DNA from: Candidatus Bathyarchaeia archaeon
Lineage (GTDB): Archaea; Thermoproteota; Bathyarchaeia; Bathyarchaeales; Bathycorpusculaceae
Length of the DNA: 60,120 nt
Assembly: GCA_038882975.1 (NCBI GenBank)
Contig: JAVZNE010000008.1
Coordinates: 1-60,120, forward strand
Reading direction: 5' to 3'
Positions 6,128 to 16,732 of the stretch are shown here, piece after piece (within the stretch, counting starts at the first letter, position 1; each line of letters begins with the position of its first letter). Below the pieces are notes generated by a model. It did no database searches. It saw only the letters and a program-made list of their open reading frames with translations, and had not been told where the DNA came from. A program made the position numbers and the translations under genes.

Positions 6128-6315
6128 GGATAACCTACACCTTCTAGAACCTTTCAAGAAATTCGCTAATTCTACATGGTTCAAGTACAGTATCATCAAC
6201 TCATTGCTTTACCCCTTACACCAGGAAAGTTAAGCCGCGACACCACCATTAATTTTTGGTTCCATTTTAGTTTAAACTTTTCGTAGGTTTGGATATATAC
6301 CAAAAGTCCGTGGAG

Positions 6316-6389
6316 TGCCGAGGGCCGGGTTTGAACCGGCGACAACCCGGTCTTCAGCCGGGCGCTCTCCCAGGCTGAGCTACCTCGGC
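6316..6389 (-). tRNA. tRNA-Phe(GAA)
   Basis: GCCGAGG/CCTCGGC acceptor, CCCGG-CT-GAA-GA-CCGGG anticodon arm, GGTTCAAACCC T-arm. Confidence 0.96.
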
Positions 6390-6614: not shown

Positions 6615-7172
6615 ATGTTGCCATCTATAGAGGAAATAGCAAAGAGAAGGAAGTTGTTGGGTTTAACCCAAGAACAACTGGCAAAGCTTGCTGGTGTGAG
6701 CCAGTCTTTTATCGCCAAACTAGAGTCGGGAAAAATTGATCCATCATACAGTAAGGTAAAAGCCGTCTTCGACGTTTTAGAGAGGGCGGAGACTGGAGAA
6801 AACTACACCGCTAAGACGGTTTTCCATGAAGGCGTTGTGGGTGTTGAGAAAACTGACAAAGTTGCTAAAGCCATAAGCCTAATGATGGAACATGGTTTCT
6901 CACAGTTGCCAGTATTTGATAAAGGAAAATGCGTGGGCTGTGTATCAGAAAAAACGATACTAGGCCAAGTGACAGCTGCCAAAGACCTCTCTAAAGTGTC
7001 TCAAAAACTTGTAGAAGAAATTATGGAAGAAGCGCCACCCCAGATTGACGAAAACGCTCCCCTACAATTGGTTTCAAGCCTATTACGTTTCTATCCTGCA
7101 GTCCTTGTCACAAAAAAGGGCGAGATAGCTGGCATAATAACAAAGGCGGACCTCTTTAAAGTAGTCACATGA
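6615..7172 (+). CDS. XRE-family HTH plus CBS-pair transcriptional regulator
   Basis: LGLTQEQLAKLAGVSQSFIAKLESGKIDP HTH followed by two CBS domains (GFSQLPV, GIITKADL). Confidence 0.9.
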   Translation: MLPSIEEIAKRRKLLGLTQEQLAKLAGVSQSFIAKLESGKIDPSYSKVKAVFDVLERAETGENYTAKTVFHEGVVGVEKTDKVAKAISLMMEHGFSQLPVFDKGKCVGCVSEKTILGQVTAAKDLSKVSQKLVEEIMEEAPPQIDENAPLQLVSSLLRFYPAVLVTKKGEIAGIITKADLFKVVT

Positions 7173-7268: not shown

Positions 7269-8111
7269 TCAAAGGTTAGCTTTTGGATAGGAGCCTAAAA
7301 TTTTTATGAATAGCGTTTTGTCTCGAAGCTCATTTAGGGCTTCCGAACATTTTGGTTCGTTTTTATGGCCTTCAAAGTCGAGGTAAAAAATGTATTCCCA
7401 TGGCTTTATCCTTGTGGGTCTGGACTCTATTTTAGTGAGATTGATTCCTCTTTTGGCGAACACGCCTAATGCTTCGTAAAGGGTTCCGGGAGCATGTTTA
7501 ACTGAGAAAATTATGGATGTCTTATCGTTACCTGTTGGTGGTGCGTCCCTTTTCGAAAGAATTACAAATCTGGTATAATTGTCTGGAACGTCGGATATAT
7601 TTTTTGCAAGAATTTTCATTCCATAAAGTTCTGCGGCTTTCTTGCTGGCTATCGCAGCTTCATTTATTGAGCCTTTCGCTTTTATTATTTTGACGCTGCC
7701 AGCTGTGTCGTAGGTCGGTATTACCTCGCACATTAGTTTCTCCAAAAATTTGGAGCATTGCGCTAAAGCCTGTGGATGTGAGTAAACCCTTTTTATAAAA
7801 CTTAAGTTGGCGTTGGGGGTTCCTACCAAACAATGCTCTATTTTGAGGATTGTTTCCCCGCAAATCTTGAGGCTGTTAGTTAATAGTAGATCATAGACTT
7901 GGTTCACATCACCTTCAATAGAGTTTTCTATCGGGAGAACGCCGTATTCCGTTGCTTCCAATTGAACCATCCTAAAAACTTCTAGGAAACTTGTACATGG
8001 GACAGGCTGGACTTTGACGCCGAAATGTTTGTACACAGCCGCTTCGCTGTAGGCTCCAGGCTCCCCTTGGAACGCTACTTGTAGGGGTTTTTCCTTCATG
8101 ATAGCCACCAT
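7269..8111 (-). CDS. pheA: Prephenate dehydratase with ACT domain
   Basis: VAFQGEPGAYSE, PIENSIEG, SHPQALAQC, NYTRF, LTKIESRP motifs. Confidence 0.96.
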   Translation of the reverse strand: MVAIMKEKPLQVAFQGEPGAYSEAAVYKHFGVKVQPVPCTSFLEVFRMVQLEATEYGVLPIENSIEGDVNQVYDLLLTNSLKICGETILKIEHCLVGTPNANLSFIKRVYSHPQALAQCSKFLEKLMCEVIPTYDTAGSVKIIKAKGSINEAAIASKKAAELYGMKILAKNISDVPDNYTRFVILSKRDAPPTGNDKTSIIFSVKHAPGTLYEALGVFAKRGINLTKIESRPTRIKPWEYIFYLDFEGHKNEPKCSEALNELRDKTLFIKILGSYPKANL

Positions 8112-8253
8112 TCATGGTTGTTTGCCTACAGCCCCTTAATTTGTCGATTCGAGAAGACGCATATACCTTTCTATTTATGCTTACTAAAGCACCGCGTTTG
8201 AATAATTAATCCGTTGCTTGATAGCGCCTGATTTTCAGTTATAGAACAAAGAA

Positions 8254-8269
8254 CCAAAAAGTATAAATA
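8254..8269 (+). promoter_or_regulatory. BRE/TATA promoter of the aromatic biosynthesis operon
   Basis: CCAAAAAG-TATAAATA ending 26 nt before the leader ATG at 8296, consistent with a near-leaderless transcript. Confidence 0.65.
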
Positions 8270-8295
8270 TGGTAACGTTTTTATTGTTGGGCTCG

Positions 8296-8373
8296 ATGAA
8301 TAATCCAATAGCCACTGAAATTAAACTCGAATTGTGTGAATGTGGCTATTGGTATTACTTCTTTAGCTATTAA
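8296..8373 (+). CDS. Putative aromatic amino acid attenuator leader peptide MNNPIATEIKLELCECGYWYYFFSY
   Basis: 25-codon ORF; 7 of the last 8 codons are Tyr/Trp/Phe; lies between the promoter and the first gene of the aro operon. Confidence 0.75.
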   Translation: MNNPIATEIKLELCECGYWYYFFSY

Positions 8374-8421
8374 GGAGAAACCGCGGCGCCTTTAAACCCG
8401 GTTTCTCTCTTCTGGGGTTTG
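8305..8421 (+). promoter_or_regulatory. Candidate attenuator RNA structures
   Basis: IR CCAATAGCCAC(8305-8315)/GTGGCTATTGG(8342-8352); IR GAGAAACCG(8375-8383)/CGGTTTCTC(8399-8407); alternative pairing TAAACCC(8393-8399)/GGGTTTG(8415-8421) over the putative SD. Confidence 0.6.
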
Positions 8422-8423
8422 TT

Positions 8424-9722
8424 GTGGAGGAGAATCAAAATCATGTTTTCGGTTCCATTCTTGTTGTGAAGTTTGGCGGAAGTAGTTTAGCGAATGGAGA
8501 AAAAATATCTAACGCCGTCAAAGCTGTCATAAAGGAGTTGAAGAAGGGAGCAAAAATTGCAGTGGTTGTTTCCGCCATGGGTAAAACCACAGATCTTCTA
8601 CTTGAGGCTTTGAGGGAGGCCACGAACTGTGGAAAAACACAGGCATGTAACCAAGACGTCGATGACGTCCTAGCCATGGGGGAGAGGACAAGTGCAAGAA
8701 TATTCTCGACAGCTCTCAAAGCAAACGGTGTGAGATGCCACTATTTCGACCCATCAGACCTAGACTGGCCCATAATTACCAATGATGTTCCAATGAACGC
8801 TGACCCCATACTGGAAATATGTGAAGAACGTGTTTGTAAGCATGTTTTGCCCTTGCTTAACGAGGGAATCGTCGTCGTTGTTCCTGGCTTCGTCGGCAAA
8901 ACGTTAGACGGCAAAATCACGACAATGGGGAGGGGTGGAAGCGACATAACCGCACTCGTTTTGGCGCGGGCTCTCAAGGCAAAACAAGCTATACTTGTAA
9001 CTGACGTCGACGGTATAATGACCGCTGATCCCAAACTTGTAAAATTTGCAAGAAAAATACCTGAAATTAATGTTGATTTATTAATTGGGCTTGCAAGTTC
9101 TTCTCACAGGTTTCTGCAGAGAAAAGCCTTAAAATACAAAGAAGACTGGTTGGACATTAAAATCATAAACCACAACCACTGCGATCTAAACGCTGAAGGA
9201 ACCGTTATCAAAGGTTCTCTCGTTAAAAAAATTGTTGACATTGATTTCCCGGAGGCGATTGCCTCCATAACCATTGTTGGAGAGGGGCTTTCCCAATCGC
9301 CAGAGATTATACATCAAGTTATCCAGAAAATAAGAAGCGTGGAAGTACATATCGTTGGATTTTCAGCCAATTATGATTCCCTCATGTTATACATTCCGGA
9401 AAGTATGCTTAATAAAATCCTTGAACCTCTTCATTCGATCGTCCAAGACCACAAGGAGGCCATAGCCATGGCTGTGAGAAAAAATCTTGCCCTAATCAAG
9501 ATTAAAACAGCCGAATTCGAAGAGGCGCTCGGGATACTTAGTAATCTGATTAGGAGCCTAAGCATAAAAGGTATTAACATCTATGGGCTGTCCATGGCGG
9601 CATCTGGGATTCATGTTTTTGTTGATAGAGGATATGCAGAGGAGGCTTTAATGATTGCTAGTAAATCTTTGCAGGAAAGTCCTGAACCATCACTAGAATT
9701 TCAGATTACGGAGGTAAAGTAG
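8424..9722 (+). CDS. lysC: Aspartate kinase with ACT domains
   Basis: VVKFGGSS, VVVSAMGKTTD, TMGRGGSDITA, TDVDGIMTADP. Confidence 0.9.
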   Translation: MEENQNHVFGSILVVKFGGSSLANGEKISNAVKAVIKELKKGAKIAVVVSAMGKTTDLLLEALREATNCGKTQACNQDVDDVLAMGERTSARIFSTALKANGVRCHYFDPSDLDWPIITNDVPMNADPILEICEERVCKHVLPLLNEGIVVVVPGFVGKTLDGKITTMGRGGSDITALVLARALKAKQAILVTDVDGIMTADPKLVKFARKIPEINVDLLIGLASSSHRFLQRKALKYKEDWLDIKIINHNHCDLNAEGTVIKGSLVKKIVDIDFPEAIASITIVGEGLSQSPEIIHQVIQKIRSVEVHIVGFSANYDSLMLYIPESMLNKILEPLHSIVQDHKEAIAMAVRKNLALIKIKTAEFEEALGILSNLIRSLSIKGINIYGLSMAASGIHVFVDRGYAEEALMIASKSLQESPEPSLEFQITEVK

Positions 9723-9724
9723 AA

Positions 9725-10513
9725 ATGCTTAGTGGAAAAAGCAAGAGAATGCAGAGAATATTTGGCAACGATGGAAAAACCGTGATTGTTCCTTTGGATC
9801 ATGGGGTTACTAACGGTCCCATGCAAGGCCTTGTAAGCATGCAAAGCACTATTGACAAGCTTGTTGCTGGTGGCGCAGACGCTGTTGTCTTGCATAAGGG
9901 CATAGCGAAAAACGTAGACACAAAGAGGCTTGGACTTATTGTGCATGTTTCCGCGAGCACAAAAGTTGGCCCTGATGCCAATTGGAAGATAAGAGTTTGC
10001 GCTATCGAAGAGGCTATTCGTTTAGGATGCGATGCTGTTTCGGTCCATGTGAATGTTGGTGCAGATCGTGAACATGAGATGTTGGCGGAGCTTGGCAGGT
10101 TGGCTGACGAGTGTGATTCGTGGGGTATTCCATTACTCGCCATGATGTATCCACGGGGGCCAAAGGTCAAAAGCGAACATGACCCCGAACTTGTTGCCCA
10201 TGCGGCAAGGCTTGGCGCGGAGCTGGGCGCAGACATAGTAAAGACAAATTATACCGGGGATCCAAAATCTTTTAGAAAAGTTGTTGAAGGATGTCCTGTT
10301 CCGTTGATAATTGCTGGTGGTCCCAAAGTCAATTCGACTAGAAGGTTGCTGGAAATGGTTTATGATGCGATACAAGCTGGTTGTGCGGGAGTATCCATAG
10401 GTCGAAACGTTTTCCAACACGAAGACCCGACAGCCATTACAAGAGCCCTTGTTGGGATAGTCCATAGAGGTCTAAAAGTTAGGGAGGCTATGGCGCTGTT
10501 AAAAAGAAACTAG
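9725..10513 (+). CDS. aroA': 2-amino-3,7-dideoxy-D-threo-hept-6-ulosonate synthase (class I aldolase, AroA')
   Basis: PLDHG, MMYPRG, ELGADIVKTNY, AGGPK, GRNVFQH; adjacent to DHQ synthase II. Confidence 0.92.
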   Translation: MLSGKSKRMQRIFGNDGKTVIVPLDHGVTNGPMQGLVSMQSTIDKLVAGGADAVVLHKGIAKNVDTKRLGLIVHVSASTKVGPDANWKIRVCAIEEAIRLGCDAVSVHVNVGADREHEMLAELGRLADECDSWGIPLLAMMYPRGPKVKSEHDPELVAHAARLGAELGADIVKTNYTGDPKSFRKVVEGCPVPLIIAGGPKVNSTRRLLEMVYDAIQAGCAGVSIGRNVFQHEDPTAITRALVGIVHRGLKVREAMALLKRN

Positions 10514-10601
10514 CTTTTCGCAATATTAATCAGTAACGCGGCCTTTCCTAAAAGCGAAAAAGTTGGTGGTTGTTACGTTTACAAGGAGAGAAGGCTTAAG
10601 C

Positions 10602-11675
10602 ATGAGAGAACTTTGGCTTAAAATAGACGAAACGGTTCCGCAAAGCCTTACAGAAGATTTGCTTAGCTTTGCAAGTCAAATATTGAACGCCGTCTATGTT
10701 GTAAATGAGCAGAGGATAGGTGATTTAAGGAAAATAGGAGTTAAAATTGCTGCAAGCGGCGACGATTGTGATATTCAAGTGTTAGAGTCTTTTAACATCG
10801 AAAAACTTGAGGAGTTTAAAAACGCTGGCAAGTCTGTAGCCGTTAAAGTGGTGGTCAGAACCGCGGAGGACGAAAAGGAAGCTGTGAAAGCCGCAAATCT
10901 CTCCGCCGATTACATCATGGTACAATGCTTAGACTGGAAGGTTATACCTCTTGAAAACTTAATAGCTACCACCAGAGGGAGAAGCAAGCTTTTAGCGGAG
11001 GTTTCATCGCTGGAAGAAGCTAAACTAGCCCTTGAAATCCTTGAGCTTGGGGTAGACGGCGTTGTCTTAAAGACAGCCGATTTAAACGAGCTAATAAAAG
11101 CTGCCCATTTAGTCAAAAAGCAGCTGCCGCAAGTTAAACTTGTACCAGTTAAAATAGTTGGAGTTAGACAAATAGGAACAGGAGCCAGAGTATGCGTTGA
11201 CACGTGTGATCTGATGAGGGAAGGGGAGGGGCTTCTTCTCGGCTGTCAGTCTGCATGCCTATTTTTAGTGGAGGCGGAAGTCCATGAAACCCCCTTCATT
11301 GAACCTAGACCTTTCAGGGTGAACGCTGGCCCGATATCCCTTTACGTCATGTGTTCCCCAGATAGGACGAAGTACCTTTCAGAGCTTAAAGCTGGAGACG
11401 AGCTAATGATTGTGGATAGAAACGGCAACGCTAGATTCGCGAATATTGGCAGAGTTAAGATCGAGTGGCGGCCCCTTATCCTCATTGAAGCTGAACGCGA
11501 CGGAAGACGTTACAAAACCATAACGCAGAACGCGGAAACCATTAGGCTTGTAACTGAGAAAGGCTCCATGGCTGTTACAGAGTTGAAACCTGGCGATGAA
11601 GTTTTAGCGCATATGCTTGAAGGCGGAAGACATTTCGGAACCCTCGTGAAGGGAGAGAGGGTTGTGGAGCTTTGA
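10602..11675 (+). CDS. aroB': 3-dehydroquinate synthase II (AroB')
   Basis: DWKVIPLENLIA, RVCVDTC, PFRVNAG, KIEWRPL, QNAETIRL, GRHFG. Confidence 0.95.
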   Translation: MRELWLKIDETVPQSLTEDLLSFASQILNAVYVVNEQRIGDLRKIGVKIAASGDDCDIQVLESFNIEKLEEFKNAGKSVAVKVVVRTAEDEKEAVKAANLSADYIMVQCLDWKVIPLENLIATTRGRSKLLAEVSSLEEAKLALEILELGVDGVVLKTADLNELIKAAHLVKKQLPQVKLVPVKIVGVRQIGTGARVCVDTCDLMREGEGLLLGCQSACLFLVEAEVHETPFIEPRPFRVNAGPISLYVMCSPDRTKYLSELKAGDELMIVDRNGNARFANIGRVKIEWRPLILIEAERDGRRYKTITQNAETIRLVTEKGSMAVTELKPGDEVLAHMLEGGRHFGTLVKGERVVEL

Positions 11676-12355
11676 ATGTAAAGATATGCGTTTCTGTTAT
11701 GCCCCGAAACCTTAGCAATGCATTGAAACTTATCGAAAAAGCGGAGAAAAACCTGGCAGACTTCATTGAAGTGAGGTTAGATTGTACCGGCTGGTTTAAA
11801 GGGTTGAAGGATATTGCCGGATGCGCGAAAACGCCGTTAATCGCAACCATTAGAACACCTGGGCATCGCGGAAAATTTTTGGGAAGAGAGGATGAACGTA
11901 TAAAAATTCTTTTGAGTGCTGCTTCGAGCGGGTTCAGTTACGTGGACATTGAGCTTGATTCTCCTTGGCTGAAAAATGCGGTGAACGATTTGCTTGCCAT
12001 GGGTGTCAAGCCTATAATATCCTTTCACGACTTCGAGAAAACGCCGGAAACAGCTAAGCTCCAGCAAATTCTTAAAAGCGAAATTGCGATGGGCGCCGAC
12101 GTTTGCAAGATAGTGACAACGGCGCAAACTATGCAGGACAATCTAACTTTGCTGCATTTCTTGAATAGTGAAGGCGGAAAGGCTAGAATCGTGTGCTTCG
12201 CCATGGGGGCTTTGGGCAAACTATCAAGACTTTTGTCGCCGATTTTTGGAGGATACTTTACGATAGCTTCCCTAAAGTGTGGGATGGAAACGGCCAGCGG
12301 CCAAATGACAATACAAGAAATGAAAACAGCTTATAGGGCATTGGGAGTTATGTAA
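11672..12355 (+). CDS. aroD: 3-dehydroquinate dehydratase type I
   Basis: EVRLD, YVDIEL, ISFHDFEKTP, KIVTTA, FAMGALGKLSRL. Confidence 0.93.
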   Translation: MNVKICVSVMPRNLSNALKLIEKAEKNLADFIEVRLDCTGWFKGLKDIAGCAKTPLIATIRTPGHRGKFLGREDERIKILLSAASSGFSYVDIELDSPWLKNAVNDLLAMGVKPIISFHDFEKTPETAKLQQILKSEIAMGADVCKIVTTAQTMQDNLTLLHFLNSEGGKARIVCFAMGALGKLSRLLSPIFGGYFTIASLKCGMETASGQMTIQEMKTAYRALGVM

Positions 12356-13231
12356 ATGGAGGTTTCTGGGAAAACTAAAGTTTTCTGTGTCATAGGCGAT
12401 CCGGTTGAGCATTCACTAAGCCCAATAATGCATAACACTGCCTTTAGACATTTGAAAATTGATGCGGTATATGTTGCTTTTAAAGTGGAAAAAGAAAACC
12501 TTGAAAGTGCCATAAAAGGCATGCGAAGCCTTGGCATATGCGGGATGAACGTGACAATGCCTCATAAAACAGCCATCGTCAACTACCTAGACGAAATTGA
12601 CCCAACAGCGAAATTTATTGGAGCTGTTAACACGGTGCTTAACAGAAACGGGAAACTTGTGGGATTCAACACCGACGGTGTTGGCGCCGTAGTAGCCTTA
12701 AAGGAAAACGGTGTAGAACCTAGAGGTAAAAAGTTTCTACTCTTGGGAGCGGGAGGTGCTGGGCGGGCTATAGCCTTCCAACTGGCACATGAAGCAGATG
12801 AGCTCATCATCCTAAATAGGGACGCATACAAGGCTAAACTTTTGGCAGATACGCTCCAAAAGAAATTTAATAAGAAAATCATGGGGGACGGTCTCTCCTA
12901 CGATAGCCTTAAAGGAAGGCTTAGGGACGTGGATGTGCTTATTAACGCTACTTCTGTAGGCATGCTTCCCTATCACGATCATTCATTACTTGAAAGGGAT
13001 CTACTAAGACCAGAACTCACTGTTATGGATATAGTTTACAACCCTGTTGAAACGAGGCTTTTAAAGGACGCGAAATCCGTTGGTGCTAAAGTTATCAATG
13101 GCATTGAAACGCTTGTTTTCCAAGGAGCTGTTTCTTTTGAGATTTGGTGGAATCAGCCAGCCCCCATAAGCGCTATGAGAACGGCTGTTATGGAAAAACT
13201 CCGCATGGTGGAATCAAAACTTGGGCAGTAG
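12356..13231 (+). CDS. aroE: Shikimate dehydrogenase
   Basis: GDPVEHSLSPIMHN, NVTMPHK, GAVNT, NTDG, GAGGAG, NATSVGM, DIVYNP. Confidence 0.96.
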   Translation: MEVSGKTKVFCVIGDPVEHSLSPIMHNTAFRHLKIDAVYVAFKVEKENLESAIKGMRSLGICGMNVTMPHKTAIVNYLDEIDPTAKFIGAVNTVLNRNGKLVGFNTDGVGAVVALKENGVEPRGKKFLLLGAGGAGRAIAFQLAHEADELIILNRDAYKAKLLADTLQKKFNKKIMGDGLSYDSLKGRLRDVDVLINATSVGMLPYHDHSLLERDLLRPELTVMDIVYNPVETRLLKDAKSVGAKVINGIETLVFQGAVSFEIWWNQPAPISAMRTAVMEKLRMVESKLGQ

Positions 13232-14102
13232 AGCCACAGCTATAAGTTACGGCGGCGCAACCATAATTAACGCTATTGCAACTGGTAAGGGAGCTGCCTT
13301 CGGGGTAAAGTTATGGACAAAAGCGGAAGTCGAGTTGACAGACAATCCTGGAGTTGTAAAGGGTGAAATCCTCTCAGACCCCCATGAAAGTACAATACTA
13401 ATAGAAAAAACTGTGAGAAAGGCTCTAGAACACTTTGGAGTCGCTGAAAAGTTTGGAGCGGAAGTTAGAACATGGTCAAATATACCTATCGCCCGTGGAT
13501 TAAAAAGCAGCAGCGCAGCTGCAAACGCTATAGCCCTCGCAACCGTAGCCGCCCTCTGCAAAGAGGTCGACGACTTAACTATAGTCAATTTAGGCGTTGA
13601 AGGGGCCATTGAAGCAAAAGTAACTATAACCGGAGCCTTCGATGACTCTTGCGCTTCTTACTTTGGTGGTATTGTCATCACGGATAACTTAAAGAGAAGA
13701 ATAATTAAGCAACTCAAAGCTCCGGAAAACCTTAAAGTCGTGTTCCACATACCGCAAACAAAGGTTTACACAGAAAGCATTGATGTTAAAAAACTGAAAG
13801 TTATAGCGCCCCTAGTTAAAATAGCCTACAAAGAAACTTTGAAAGGAAACTTCTGGCAAGCTTTAACGCTAAATGGGCTAATATACTCTTTTGCATTAAG
13901 TTACAGTCCTTCTATAGTTCTAGACGCCCTAATGGCTGGGGCGATAGCCGCAGGACTCTGCGGAAAAGGGCCAGCTATAACGGCGGTCACCACCGAGGAC
14001 AAAGTTGACCGTGTTAAAGAGGCTTTAATGGGATACGAAGGCGAAATTATAGAGACCCAGATAAATCATGAAAAGGCTAAAGTTCTAGGAGTCTCTCAAT
14101 GA
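13221..14102 (+). CDS. aroK: Archaeal shikimate kinase (GHMP family)
   Basis: TIINAIATGKGAAFG, PIARGLKSSSAAAN, TGAFDD. Confidence 0.93.
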   Translation: MGSRATAISYGGATIINAIATGKGAAFGVKLWTKAEVELTDNPGVVKGEILSDPHESTILIEKTVRKALEHFGVAEKFGAEVRTWSNIPIARGLKSSSAAANAIALATVAALCKEVDDLTIVNLGVEGAIEAKVTITGAFDDSCASYFGGIVITDNLKRRIIKQLKAPENLKVVFHIPQTKVYTESIDVKKLKVIAPLVKIAYKETLKGNFWQALTLNGLIYSFALSYSPSIVLDALMAGAIAAGLCGKGPAITAVTTEDKVDRVKEALMGYEGEIIETQINHEKAKVLGVSQ

Positions 14103-15385
14103 TGGATGTTATTATCAAACCCACAAAAACATTGAAAGGAGAGGTCGCCGCCCCATCATCAAAGTCCTACACGCATAGAATACTTATTGCAGCGCTCTTA
14201 TCAAATGGGAGGACAAAAATAGAAAAACCTCTAGTCTCCGAAGATACACTGGCAACTCTTGAGGCGGTGAAAGCCTTTGGAGCCGATGTGAAACAAAACA
14301 ACGGTCTCTGGGAGATCAACGGTCAGCCGCATCTGAAAGCGCCCATGAATCCCGTTAACTGCCGAGAGTCTGGTGCTACATTACGCTTCATGATACCCGT
14401 AGCCGCCTTAGCTGATGGAAACACGACATTTTTTATGAGGCAGTCACTGAGCAGGAGACCGATACTGCCGTTGCTTCAAAGCCTCAGGCAGCTTGGAGTG
14501 AAAACCCAATATAAACCTCCCTTTGTAACTGTTTATGGCAACAGTATTGACGGCGGAAAAACAACATTGCCGGGCGACGTAAGCTCCCAGTTCATATCCG
14601 GCCTTTTATTTGTATGTCCCCGCGCAAAAAGGAGCACCCAAATAACCCTCACAAAACCCATTGAGTCTAAGAGCTACATTGAAATGACTGTGGAGGTGTT
14701 AAGCAAGCACTCCATTACAGTTGAGTTTTCGGAAGATTTCAGTCGGATACACGTTCCAAGCGGGCAAAACTACCAGCCATCTGGTCATAAAGTTCCTGGA
14801 GACTTTTCCTCCGCAGCATATCTACTCGCCGCAGCCGCCATAACTTCGTCTAAAATAAAGATACATAATCTTGATTACGCCTCAAAACAAGGGGATAAGG
14901 CACTTTTAGAAATACTTGGGCAGTCAGGGCTAAGCGTCTCCATTGGAGAGGGCTTCGTCGAGGTATGGGGTGCGCTCCACAACGCTATAGACGTTGATGC
15001 TCGCGATATTCCAGACTTAGTGCCTGCATGTACAGCCATTGCATGTTATACAACTGGCGCGTCAATAATACGTAATGTCCGAAGGCTAAGATACAAGGAA
15101 TCCGACAGATTAACCGCCCTTTACACCGAGTTTAGAAAAATGGGCGCCGATATAGATGTGAAAGGGGACAGCCTAATAATAAGGGGGCCGTGCGAACTTC
15201 ACGGTGCGGTGATAAACCCACATGGCGATCATAGAATAGCCATGGCTTGCGCGGCTGCTGCCTTAGGAGCTGAAGGCGAAACCGTTATTATGAACGCTGA
15301 ATGTGTGAGAAAGTCTTATCCGAAATTCTTCGAAGACTTATACATACTGGGAGCGAGTATAATTGGCGGCAAACTCGATTGGTAA
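14099..15385 (+). CDS. aroA: 3-phosphoshikimate 1-carboxyvinyltransferase (EPSP synthase)
   Basis: SKSYTHR, ESGATLRF, SSQFISGLL, LRYKESDR, DHRIAM, KSYPKF. Confidence 0.96.
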   Translation: MMDVIIKPTKTLKGEVAAPSSKSYTHRILIAALLSNGRTKIEKPLVSEDTLATLEAVKAFGADVKQNNGLWEINGQPHLKAPMNPVNCRESGATLRFMIPVAALADGNTTFFMRQSLSRRPILPLLQSLRQLGVKTQYKPPFVTVYGNSIDGGKTTLPGDVSSQFISGLLFVCPRAKRSTQITLTKPIESKSYIEMTVEVLSKHSITVEFSEDFSRIHVPSGQNYQPSGHKVPGDFSSAAYLLAAAAITSSKIKIHNLDYASKQGDKALLEILGQSGLSVSIGEGFVEVWGALHNAIDVDARDIPDLVPACTAIACYTTGASIIRNVRRLRYKESDRLTALYTEFRKMGADIDVKGDSLIIRGPCELHGAVINPHGDHRIAMACAAAALGAEGETVIMNAECVRKSYPKFFEDLYILGASIIGGKLDW

Positions 15386-16472
15386 AGCCTTCGTAGTGAC
15401 ATCCTTCGGCGAAAGCCACGGCAAATGCGTCGGCGCCGTTATAGACGGTTGCCCGGCAGGCCTTCCCCTCTCTGAAGGAGACATTCAAGTAGAATTAGAT
15501 AAGAGAATTCCCCAAAAGCATGAAATAACTTCAGGAAGAATTGAAAAAGATATTGTTGAGCTTTTGTCGGGAGTGTTTGAAGGGTACACCACAGGCGCAC
15601 CCATCTGCATGCTGGTTTGGAATAAGGAAGCAACCCCCTCAGATTATGATGTTATAAAGGATTTGCCTAGACCTGGACATGCGGACTATCCGGCCTGCGT
15701 CAAATATGGCGGATTTAACGATTATAGAGGCGGCGGAAGATTCTCTGGAAGAATTACAGTATCCTTTATCATAGCCGGGGCTGTCGCAAAGAAACTTTTA
15801 CGAATATTTGGAGTTGAAGTGTTGGCCTACACCAAAGCCATAGGCAGCGTAGAAATGAAAGAAACGCCGACGCTGGAACAAATCAGAGAAGAAACCTACA
15901 AAAATCCGGTAAGATGTCCAATCCCAGCCTGTGCAAAATCCATGGAAGAAGCCATAATCAAGGCCAGAGAGGAAGGGGACAGCCTCGGAGGCGTTGTGGA
16001 ATGCATAGCTTTAAATGTTCCAGCCGGAGTCGGCGAGCCGATATTTGATGCGTTAGATGCGGACATTGCAAAAGCAATTTTCGCTGTACCAGCAGTGAAA
16101 GGCGTAGAATTCGGCGCAGGCTTTAAAGCCGCCGCCATGAAGGGGTCTGAAAATAACGACCAATATGCTGTACGAGATGGCAAAGCGGTAACGTTGACAA
16201 ACAATGCCGGTGGAGTGCTTGGCGGTTTATCCAACGGAATGCCTATTGTGTTTAGAGCGGCTATCAAGCCAACACCATCAATCTTCAAAAAACAGAAAAC
16301 CATAAATCTATCAAAATTTGAGGAAGCAACGCTGCAGATAAAAGGGAGACACGATCCATGCATAGTACCAAAAGCCGTTCCTGTAATAGAGTCGGTGGTA
16401 GCCATAACCTTGGCAGACCTTATGATAAGGGCTGGAATAATGCCAAAGGTTCTGGTAAGGAAGAGGCGTTAA
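15363..16472 (+). CDS. aroC: Chorismate synthase
   Basis: FGESHG, RPGHAD, GGGRFSGR, NNAGGVLGG, KPTPSI, GRHDPC. Confidence 0.97.
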   Translation: MAANSIGKAFVVTSFGESHGKCVGAVIDGCPAGLPLSEGDIQVELDKRIPQKHEITSGRIEKDIVELLSGVFEGYTTGAPICMLVWNKEATPSDYDVIKDLPRPGHADYPACVKYGGFNDYRGGGRFSGRITVSFIIAGAVAKKLLRIFGVEVLAYTKAIGSVEMKETPTLEQIREETYKNPVRCPIPACAKSMEEAIIKAREEGDSLGGVVECIALNVPAGVGEPIFDALDADIAKAIFAVPAVKGVEFGAGFKAAAMKGSENNDQYAVRDGKAVTLTNNAGGVLGGLSNGMPIVFRAAIKPTPSIFKKQKTINLSKFEEATLQIKGRHDPCIVPKAVPVIESVVAITLADLMIRAGIMPKVLVRKRR

Positions 16473-16732
16473 AGAAAATAGCAGCATTAAGACGGAAAAT
16501 AGATAAAATAGATGAAGAAATCCTCCTACTATTAAAAGAGAGACTTGAAACATCCAAGAAAATAGGTAAAATAAAACAGAGGCACGGAGTTCCAGTAAGG
16601 GATCCTGGAAGAGAAGAGGAGAAATACAAACAAATAACCGAAAAAGCTTTGAAGTTGATGCTCAACCCAGAAGATGTCAAAGACCTTTATCGGAAAATAA
16701 TAGATATGAGCGTGCATGTACAAGATCAATGA
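16469..16732 (+). CDS. Chorismate mutase (AroQ); no canonical start codon near the domain start
   Basis: LRRKIDKIDEEILLLLKER...IGKIK...VRDPGREE; first codon after the purine-rich stretch is TTA. Confidence 0.8.
   Translation, partial: LKKIAALRRKIDKIDEEILLLLKERLETSKKIGKIKQRHGVPVRDPGREEEKYKQITEKALKLMLNPEDVKDLYRKIIDMSVHVQDQ

Follow-up and report, generated by a model that had tools for sequence, protein, structure and literature searches.

Leader-peptide attenuation is a textbook bacterial mechanism that needs coupled transcription and translation, with pheL-pheA, pheM-pheST, trpL, hisL and thrL of Escherichia coli among the bacterial leaders of this kind; in tnaC, the site where the termination factor Rho enters is hidden as long as a ribosome stays on the leader. 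The element described here is a short leader open reading frame (ORF) rich in codons for aromatic amino acids that lies, together with two RNA hairpins, upstream of an aromatic amino-acid operon in Candidatus Bathyarchaeia archaeon (GenBank assembly GCA_038882975.1, contig JAVZNE010000008.1, positions 1 to 60,120 of the forward strand; this whole stretch of 60,120 nucleotides (nt) is referred to as the window). Judging from the sequence and its conservation among relatives, the element is probably a ribosome-sensing leader of some kind, and there is about an even chance that it is, more specifically, a ribosome-mediated (leader-peptide) attenuator of the archaeal operon.

A search of the full-text literature, in which most subscription journals are not covered, yielded no leader-peptide attenuator described for Archaea. 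As for the published regulation of aromatic operons in archaea, all that was found is the action of Tar (TK0271) of Thermococcus kodakarensis, a DNA-binding protein that activates these operons, and not an RNA or ribosome device (PMC6737238). In the texts as scanned for terms, the Tar study mentions neither attenuation nor leaders nor untranslated regions, a review of archaeal coupling (PMC8116511) mentions neither attenuation nor leader peptides nor polarity, and the Methanosarcina and Haloferax ribosome-profiling papers make only general remarks on upstream ORFs. Sequestor hairpins have been predicted in Actinobacteria (PMC1262725). An Rfam scan of positions 7800–8800, at E-values up to 10, returned a single unrelated match (E 9.6) and no curated leader RNA family.

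The leader open reading frame and its conservation

The operon comprises nine genes on the plus strand, from an aspartate kinase paralogue to chorismate mutase (8424–16732). The leader ORF and the sites around it are as follows:

8256..8269, plus strand: TATA/BRE-like promoter box AAAAAGTATAAATA, 26 nt upstream of the leader ATG; close relatives have the same box at about the same distance
8296..8373, plus strand: leader ORF of 25 codons plus TAA, MNNPIATEIKLELCECGYWYYFFSY, with the tail GYWYYFFSY and a start that is conserved in relatives
8347..8370, plus strand: run of regulatory codons, Y18 W19 Y20 Y21 F22 F23 (S24) Y25
8424..9722, plus strand: first gene of the operon, the aspartate kinase paralogue (AA_kinase and ACT domain matches)

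Codons for Tyr, Trp and Phe make up seven of the last eight codons before the stop (TAA, 8371–8373). Translation probably starts at ATG 8296 rather than at ATG 8269, the start listed by the ORF tool, because the latter lies inside the conserved TATA-like box whereas the former is conserved in relatives. Given the position of the box, the 5' untranslated region would be very short. Among the 14,090 short ATG-initiated ORFs (12–45 codons) in the whole genome, the leader ranks first, with seven aromatic residues among the last 10, compared with six in each of the next eight ORFs. A genome-wide look for leader ORFs of His, Trp, Thr, Leu and other amino acids revealed no obvious candidates; the sole Trp-rich short ORF in the genome sits among unrelated genes.

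The relatives of the locus, which were found via the kinase, are all labelled Bathyarchaeia or Bathyarchaeota; distant kinase homologues (29–36% identity; six archaeal records and one bacterial) were left out. An aromatic-tailed ORF of 17–28 codons, ending 42–74 nt before the kinase start, is present in each of the 22 unique close loci, that is, those with a kinase at least 45% identical, after two duplicate loci were dropped. In the class-wide sample, an orthologue of the kinase (E-value of 1e-90 or better) was detected in 95 of the 301 genomes, and upstream DNA was available for 89 of these, with 88 usable. A short ORF that ends within 140 nt of the kinase and has at least five aromatic residues among its last 12 was found in 55 of the 88 loci, and one with at least six in 52, compared with 38 (3.9%) and 9 (0.9%), respectively, of the 968 control gene starts in this genome. 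The leader occurs in families f1, f7, f11, f14, f16, f19, f27, f30, f32, f34 and f37; one of the two f11 matches (L056) looks spurious and was excluded from the later set, which consists of 74 leader loci after the removal of duplicates.

What is kept in the peptide from one locus to another is the richness in aromatic residues and their position, not the sequence. The gaps in the aligned aromatic tails span 3, 6 or 9 columns, as expected for a translated frame. The possibility that the leader is fused to the kinase by read-through or frameshifting was considered and rejected: the two frames differ in the window (128 nt from 8296 to 8424), and the spacing between stop and start is in no fixed frame across the loci.

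Two conserved hairpins at fixed positions

Two hairpins, A and B, flank the regulatory codons, and the second of these is followed by the ribosome-binding site of the kinase gene:

8305..8315, plus strand: 5' arm of hairpin A, CCAATAGCCAC, in leader codons 4–7, starting 10 nt into the ORF
8342..8352, plus strand: 3' arm of hairpin A, GTGGCTATTGG, which covers G17-Y18-W19 and forms 11 perfect pairs with the 5' arm
8374..8408, plus strand: hairpin B, in which GAGAAACCG (8375–8383) pairs with CGGTTTCTC (8399–8407); −15.6 kcal/mol at 37 °C and −5.4 kcal/mol at 70 °C
8408..8413, plus strand: pyrimidine tract TCTTCT, between hairpin B and the Shine-Dalgarno-like run
8414..8418, plus strand: Shine-Dalgarno-like GGGGT of the kinase gene, outside hairpin B

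Both hairpins had been pointed out in an earlier note on this DNA, and both are where that note placed them: stem A has the 11 pairs claimed for it and joins the 5' part of the leader to the first regulatory codons, and stem B, separated from the stop TAA by the single base 8374, is followed by TCTTCT. Hairpin B additionally contains a G8374–T8408 wobble and two inner G-C pairs, and its 3' arm ends 16 nt before GTG 8424. When positions 8290–8445 are folded, A and B appear both in the minimum free energy structure and in the centroid (−45.1 kcal/mol; z −2.95; 1 of 200 shuffles as good), and hairpin A retains −5.6 kcal/mol at 70 °C.

Both hairpins are real, conserved RNA structures. For the 11 close relatives of group 1, RNAalifold predicts A and B and nothing else; taken together, the two helices have 95.9% of the alignment cells paired, compared with 31–53% when the 3' partner is slid, and none of the 500 shuffles attained their covariation score. 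In A, both partners have changed at three of the pairs, mostly in locus L036, in which the peptide is altered and the helix is kept. Group 2 comprises 29 sequences, which represent five or more genera; here too, RNAalifold yields exactly two helices, with 99.1% of the cells paired, compared with 24–47% when slid. One of these is B; in the other, TTCGAAGC, located 3–7 nt upstream of the ATG of the leader, pairs with GCTTCGA, at the Ser-Phe codons that head the aromatic run. The same helix in the initiation region, formed by other sequences, is discernible by eye in families f7, f30 and f37. Thus, hairpin A is a helix between the initiation region of the leader and its first regulatory codons. 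The earlier note had made its reading depend on conservation and covariation of stems B and C; for B, both are borne out, with compensatory pairs within each of the two groups.

Counted from the first base of the leader stop, the 5' base of hairpin B is at a distance of 0–7 nt in 73 of the 74 loci (0–3 nt in 60), and its 3' end lies 10–25 nt before the kinase start in 70 of 73, with the ribosome-binding site of the kinase found, by eye, 2–7 nt past the 3' foot. The hairpins have 6–24 pairs, and their energy averages −18.7 kcal/mol. Of the 74 leaders, 71 have a hairpin of −12 kcal/mol or better at the stop; for ORFs of this genome the corresponding counts are 10 among 400 stops of long ones and 20 among 400 stops of short ones. 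Between families, the position of B is fixed and its sequence is unrelated, with arms such as GGAGAAACCG/CGGTTTCTCC, GCCCAGAAC/GTTCTGGGC or AAGCTTCGAAACC and its complement.

A possible mechanism

The features that hold everywhere are aromatic codons that extend as far as the stop, a stop that lies at the 5' foot of B, a ribosome-binding site of the kinase past the 3' foot and a helix that could close the leader. These features are compatible with a scheme in which the speed of the first ribosome over the aromatic codons reports the supply of charged aromatic tRNAs. Hairpin A would close the leader once that ribosome moves on, so that only the first, transcription-coupled ribosome would decide. 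A ribosome held on the aromatic codons would stop short of B, which would then fold as it is made, and the operon would be on. A ribosome at the stop would cover the 5' arm of B, the U/pyrimidine-rich loop and the 3' strand would stay single-stranded behind the polymerase, and the operon would be off, because the strand thus exposed would allow FttA/aCPSF1 to cleave the transcript and set it free close to the start of the kinase gene. That a helix would hold the leader to one round suggests a decision taken once and co-transcriptionally, and because the foldability of B is the only state that would differ sharply at that moment, ribosome-gated folding of B is favoured as the switch. That the folding of B is gated by the position of the ribosome appears about as probable as the contrary, and termination of the FttA type as the output step is a more tentative suggestion.

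The case for FttA draws on the composition of the RNA around B and on what has been reported of the factor. According to a structural study, FttA needs ∼36 nt of the nascent transcript, which it engages with a preference for U-rich RNA at −30 to −36, and a coupled ribosome presumably keeps it out (PMC11616081). The genome encodes an FttA/aCPSF1 orthologue (contig C4; TIGR03675, 924 bits, above the family cut-off). The loop and 3' arm of B together with the spacer (8384–8413) are 73% pyrimidine in the window. Between the leader stop and the kinase start, T-runs of at least four are present in 50 of the 74 loci, compared with 22.5 expected, and T-runs of at least five in 25, compared with 8.3 expected; by location, 21 are in the loop of B, 10 in its 3' arm and 18 past the hairpin, and in 17 of 73 loci there is no T within the 6 nt after B. 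The earlier note had also offered, as its second choice, control of aCPSF1/FttA-type termination through exposure of the pyrimidine tract, and this would suit the conserved geometry better than the hiding of the Shine-Dalgarno sequence that it put first. In its boldest form, the proposal is that of an archaeal-native attenuation simpler than the bacterial one, with no antiterminator, a single hairpin that hides or exposes ∼35 nt of U/pyrimidine-rich RNA to the CPSF73-like FttA, a second helix that limits the leader to one decisive round, and several sequence-unrelated versions across much of Bathyarchaeia; this remains speculative and, taken as a whole, is rather doubtful.

Several observations weigh against an attenuator of this kind. 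The aromatic-run type of leader is missing in 33 of the 88 class-wide loci, namely, families f26 (11), f35 (21) and f15 (1), which carry another small ORF; moreover, the sequences are related, so that the counts given here are not independent trials and overstate the evidence. The leader regions of the 74 loci fold only moderately better than shuffled sequences (mean z −1.04, with 18 of 74 below −2), and that hairpin A would close the leader is suggested by its position only. No conserved antiterminator or sequestor pairing was found in groups 1 and 2, either by RNAalifold or by the tests of stem C and helix D described below. The U-rich signal is weak in the window itself because the longest T-run after the stop is only 3, with TCTCTTCT following B, and in group 2 the 3' flank of B is often purine-rich. 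Finally, the leader has a Trp codon, and tryptophan synthase alpha (trpA, PF00290) was not found in the genome, the completeness of which is 94.7%.

Alternative explanations

The first choice of the earlier note was a translational switch. A ribosome that reaches the stop would melt B; a further stem, C, or, in a broader version considered here, the freed 3' arm of B would then pair with the Shine-Dalgarno sequence and the start of the kinase gene and block initiation, whereas a stalled ribosome would keep B intact and the site free. The additional stem is:

8393..8421, plus strand: stem C, TAAACCC (8393–8399) with GGGTTTG (8415–8421), seven pairs including one G-T

The pairing claimed for C does exist, but in folding and in conservation alike it stays at the level of chance and is unsupported as a functional element. 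Stem C is found neither in the minimum free energy structure nor in the centroid of 8290–8445, and its energy is −6.6 kcal/mol at 37 °C and −1.0 kcal/mol at 70 °C. In the alignment, 75.7% of its cells are paired; shuffles give 74.1%, with 183 of 500 reaching the value of C, and a slide by one column gives 71.2%. The mutual exclusivity of B and C on which the switch relied is thin, given that C overlaps the main stem of B only at 8399, in addition to the two inner pairs of B. Helix D (8408–8414 with 8425–8431), a weak candidate taken from the minimum free energy structure and also present in the centroid, fared no better and was rejected, with 70.1% of the cells paired compared with 69.1% in shuffles and no stability at 70 °C.

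Some observations do fit such a switch. In the close group, the 3' arm of B ends with CTCC, followed by T3–6 and GGGGG, and a small CTCC/GGGG hairpin appears in the constrained folds of L003, L033, L035, L036, L037 and L039. In local folds of 22 loci, masking of the 7–10 nt after the stop makes the kinase start site harder to open in 16 and easier in 4–5, the mean rise in opening energy being ∼0.7 kcal/mol. Across the 74 loci, in which the kinase start codons were ranked with the anti-Shine-Dalgarno motif and the start positions are approximate in the distant ones, the mean opening energy amounts to 4.08 kcal/mol when a ribosome occupies the tail, 5.44 kcal/mol when one is at the stop and 6.43 kcal/mol when there is none; it is higher with the ribosome at the stop than on the tail in 58 of the 74 loci and lower in 8. 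The controls, however, remove most of this effect. Masking the 5' arm of B adds 1.37 kcal/mol at the kinase start, but hairpins with permuted stems add nearly as much, 1.03 kcal/mol, and the real value is the larger in 44 of 73 loci. Pairing of the aromatic tail itself with the kinase start was rejected as a generic effect: the real tail contributes +2.35 kcal/mol, compared with +2.79 kcal/mol for codon-shuffled tails (real larger in 31 of 74) and +1.72 kcal/mol for generic ORF ends (real larger in 46 of 74).

Folding of whole leaders with the ribosome footprints masked gives no consistent sign of a difference between the stalled and stop states, and in the window it is the stalled state that is the less open (∼9.0 compared with 7.8 kcal/mol). 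The start site is also ordinary at rest: in the absence of a ribosome, its opening energy in the window, 5.04 kcal/mol, falls at the 27th percentile of 250 ordinary genes with a Shine-Dalgarno sequence, and the mean over the 74 loci is 6.19 kcal/mol, compared with 6.79 kcal/mol in those genes. The 3' arm of B is unlike an anti-Shine-Dalgarno sequence in several families, including group 2, the largest, in which this arm is GTTCTGGGC. Furthermore, once the ribosome leaves, B (−15.6 kcal/mol) would displace any pairing of −3 to −7 kcal/mol, and if A shuts the leader after the first round, ribosomes would seldom be at the stop at all. With most of the effect removed by the controls and the start site open, hiding of the Shine-Dalgarno sequence at equilibrium is unsupported, and a translational switch appears unlikely. 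What stands of the overall reading in the earlier note is a leader ORF with aromatic codons between two real hairpins in front of the aromatic operon, the ribosome-sensing role of which is backed across Bathyarchaeia; what does not stand is the switch between B and C.

A gated translational coupling is another, quite unlikely, possibility. Here A would close the start of the leader unless slow ribosomes occupy the aromatic codons, so that only under starvation would ribosomes arrive in succession at the stop, by the foot of B, and start anew, or clear the path, at the beginning of the kinase gene, a few bases past the opposite side of B. In favour of such coupling are the helix between the initiation region and the first aromatic codons, which is seen in two groups and, by eye, in f7, f30 and f37, and the folded B, which brings the stop and the ribosome-binding site of the kinase within ∼10–25 nt of each other. 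The kinase gene, however, keeps a strong Shine-Dalgarno sequence of its own, and the accessibility of its start site without a ribosome, ordinary by the means given above, implies that independent initiation should not need coupling; besides, starved ribosomes mean low flux.

It is also improbable, if conceivable, that the element is not a sensor at all, such that the ORF encodes an aromatic-rich micro-protein or remains untranslated, and the hairpins serve 5' stabilization, processing or protein binding. In favour of this possibility, translation and regulation of the leader are deduced from sequence alone, and hairpins near 5' ends can stabilize transcripts. Yet only aromatic richness and position are conserved in the peptide, the pairing of A is kept where the peptide changes (L036), many families share the association of the ORF with the aromatic operon, and the stop codon is locked to the base of B. 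The variation of the sequence of B between families speaks specifically against a sequence-specific protein site.

Very improbable is classical bacterial-type attenuation with B and a T-rich tract as an intrinsic terminator, even though a perfect B hairpin is followed by T4–6 in several families (for example, f14, f7, f11 and the close group) and T-runs are enriched. The logic runs backwards, because a starved, stalled ribosome leaves B free to fold and would cause termination, whereas one that has reached the stop covers B. Moreover, groups 1 and 2 show no conserved pairing of the antiterminator kind, the window has only the short T-run noted above after B, 17 of 73 loci lack a T in the 6 nt after B, and archaeal intrinsic termination depends on oligo-T and is not known to depend on a hairpin.

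Genomic setting

The operon downstream of the leader is the archaeal route to chorismate (the shikimate/chorismate pathway). Its genes other than that of the kinase are:

9725..16732, plus strand: ADH synthase (aroA'), dehydroquinate synthase II (aroB'), dehydroquinase (aroD), shikimate dehydrogenase (aroE), archaeal shikimate kinase, EPSP synthase, chorismate synthase and chorismate mutase

In archaea, the precursor from which this route departs is aspartate semialdehyde, and this would account for the kinase gene in the operon. The two other aspartate kinase paralogues of the genome are inside operons and have no leaders. In the close group, the kinase has a conserved N-terminal extension of ∼10 residues (MEENQNHVFGS...) before the usual VVKFGGSS start (8424–8465 in the window); in the RNA this extension is purine-rich (GTGGAGGAGAA) and able to pair with the 3' arm of B in some relatives. 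In L036, an ATA is aligned to GTG 8424, with no in-frame ATG, GTG or TTG from there to 39 nt downstream; this ATA may be an unusual start codon or a sequencing error.

An intergenic region (8112–8423) separates the operon from the divergent prephenate dehydratase gene (7269–8111, minus strand). Adjoining the latter is a gene for a helix-turn-helix protein with a CBS domain (6615–7172, plus strand), which may be a DNA-binding regulator of the shared promoter region. The aromatic leader is preceded, at a distance of ∼1.9 kb, by a tRNA-Phe gene (anticodon GAA; 6315–6389, minus strand). A 26-codon ORF on the minus strand (8235–8315) ending with FILFGSLFYN is located between the leader and the divergent pheA gene and is probably a chance complement of the AT-rich promoter region. 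In the group 2 loci, the TATA-like box is replaced by GCTTATATTTT or GCTTTTATTTT.

Two of the families without the aromatic run, f26 (L058, L061, L063, L086, L090, L099, L105–L107, L111 and L115) and f35 (L081, L088, L093, L096, L097, L100, L103, L110, L117 and L127–L138), have, upstream of the kinase orthologue, a different short ORF that is strongly conserved together with a nucleotide motif and contains single Phe, Tyr and Trp codons. The predicted peptides resemble MGDxLFGDGVY, FGGHIYGDxYW and MGGHLYWH, and the f35 motif includes the self-complementary pair GTGGTCAC/GTGACCAC. This short ORF may be a second type of aromatic leader.

The public sequencing runs listed as containing the DNA are hot-spring metagenomes, with no RNA run among them; the only one that contains it in full may be its own source.

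Comparison with known systems

If the element works as proposed, it would provide physiological evidence that Archaea use transcription–translation coupling for regulation, a natural and compact test case for the interplay of archaeal ribosomes, RNA polymerase and FttA, and an explanation of how an expensive pathway is tuned in uncultured Bathyarchaeia. The fixed geometry, with the stop and the ribosome-binding site at the two feet of a hairpin, and the self-closing helix of the leader yield clear predictions that are amenable to mutation.

The element resembles the bacterial leader-peptide attenuators in being a short ORF before a biosynthetic operon, rich in codons for the end products, with hairpins flanking the regulatory codons, and in being conserved across relatives. 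As in E. coli trpL, a helix could shut the ribosome-binding site of the leader itself after the first round. It differs from the bacterial attenuators in its archaeal host, its TATA-box promoter, its near-leaderless start and the mixture of three aromatic residues in one leader. Unlike the trpL/pheL/hisL class, it has only two conserved, non-overlapping helices and lacks the set of a 1:2 helix, a 2:3 antiterminator and a 3:4 terminator, and the hairpin after the stop would have the wrong logic for a terminator. Hence, the element would work like a bacterial leader-peptide attenuator, yet it fails the structural definition of that family, having no antiterminator and no clear terminator.

Translational attenuation of the ermC/cat kind and the sequestors of Actinobacteria share with this locus a leader ORF upstream of a gene with its own Shine-Dalgarno sequence and, as predicted here, a local folding that changes with the position of the ribosome. 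Unlike in ermC/cat, the Shine-Dalgarno sequence here lies outside the conserved hairpin and is ordinarily accessible at rest instead of being sequestered.

The nearest logic appears to be that of tnaC and Rho, namely, control by a leader ribosome over the access of a termination factor. In both cases, a leader ribosome near the stop would decide on the loading of the factor just downstream, with no need for an antiterminator. The factor here would be FttA/aCPSF1 rather than Rho, the signal would be hungry codons rather than a free amino acid sensed by the nascent peptide, and a ribosome that has reached the stop would not hide the site but expose it, by keeping the hairpin from forming.

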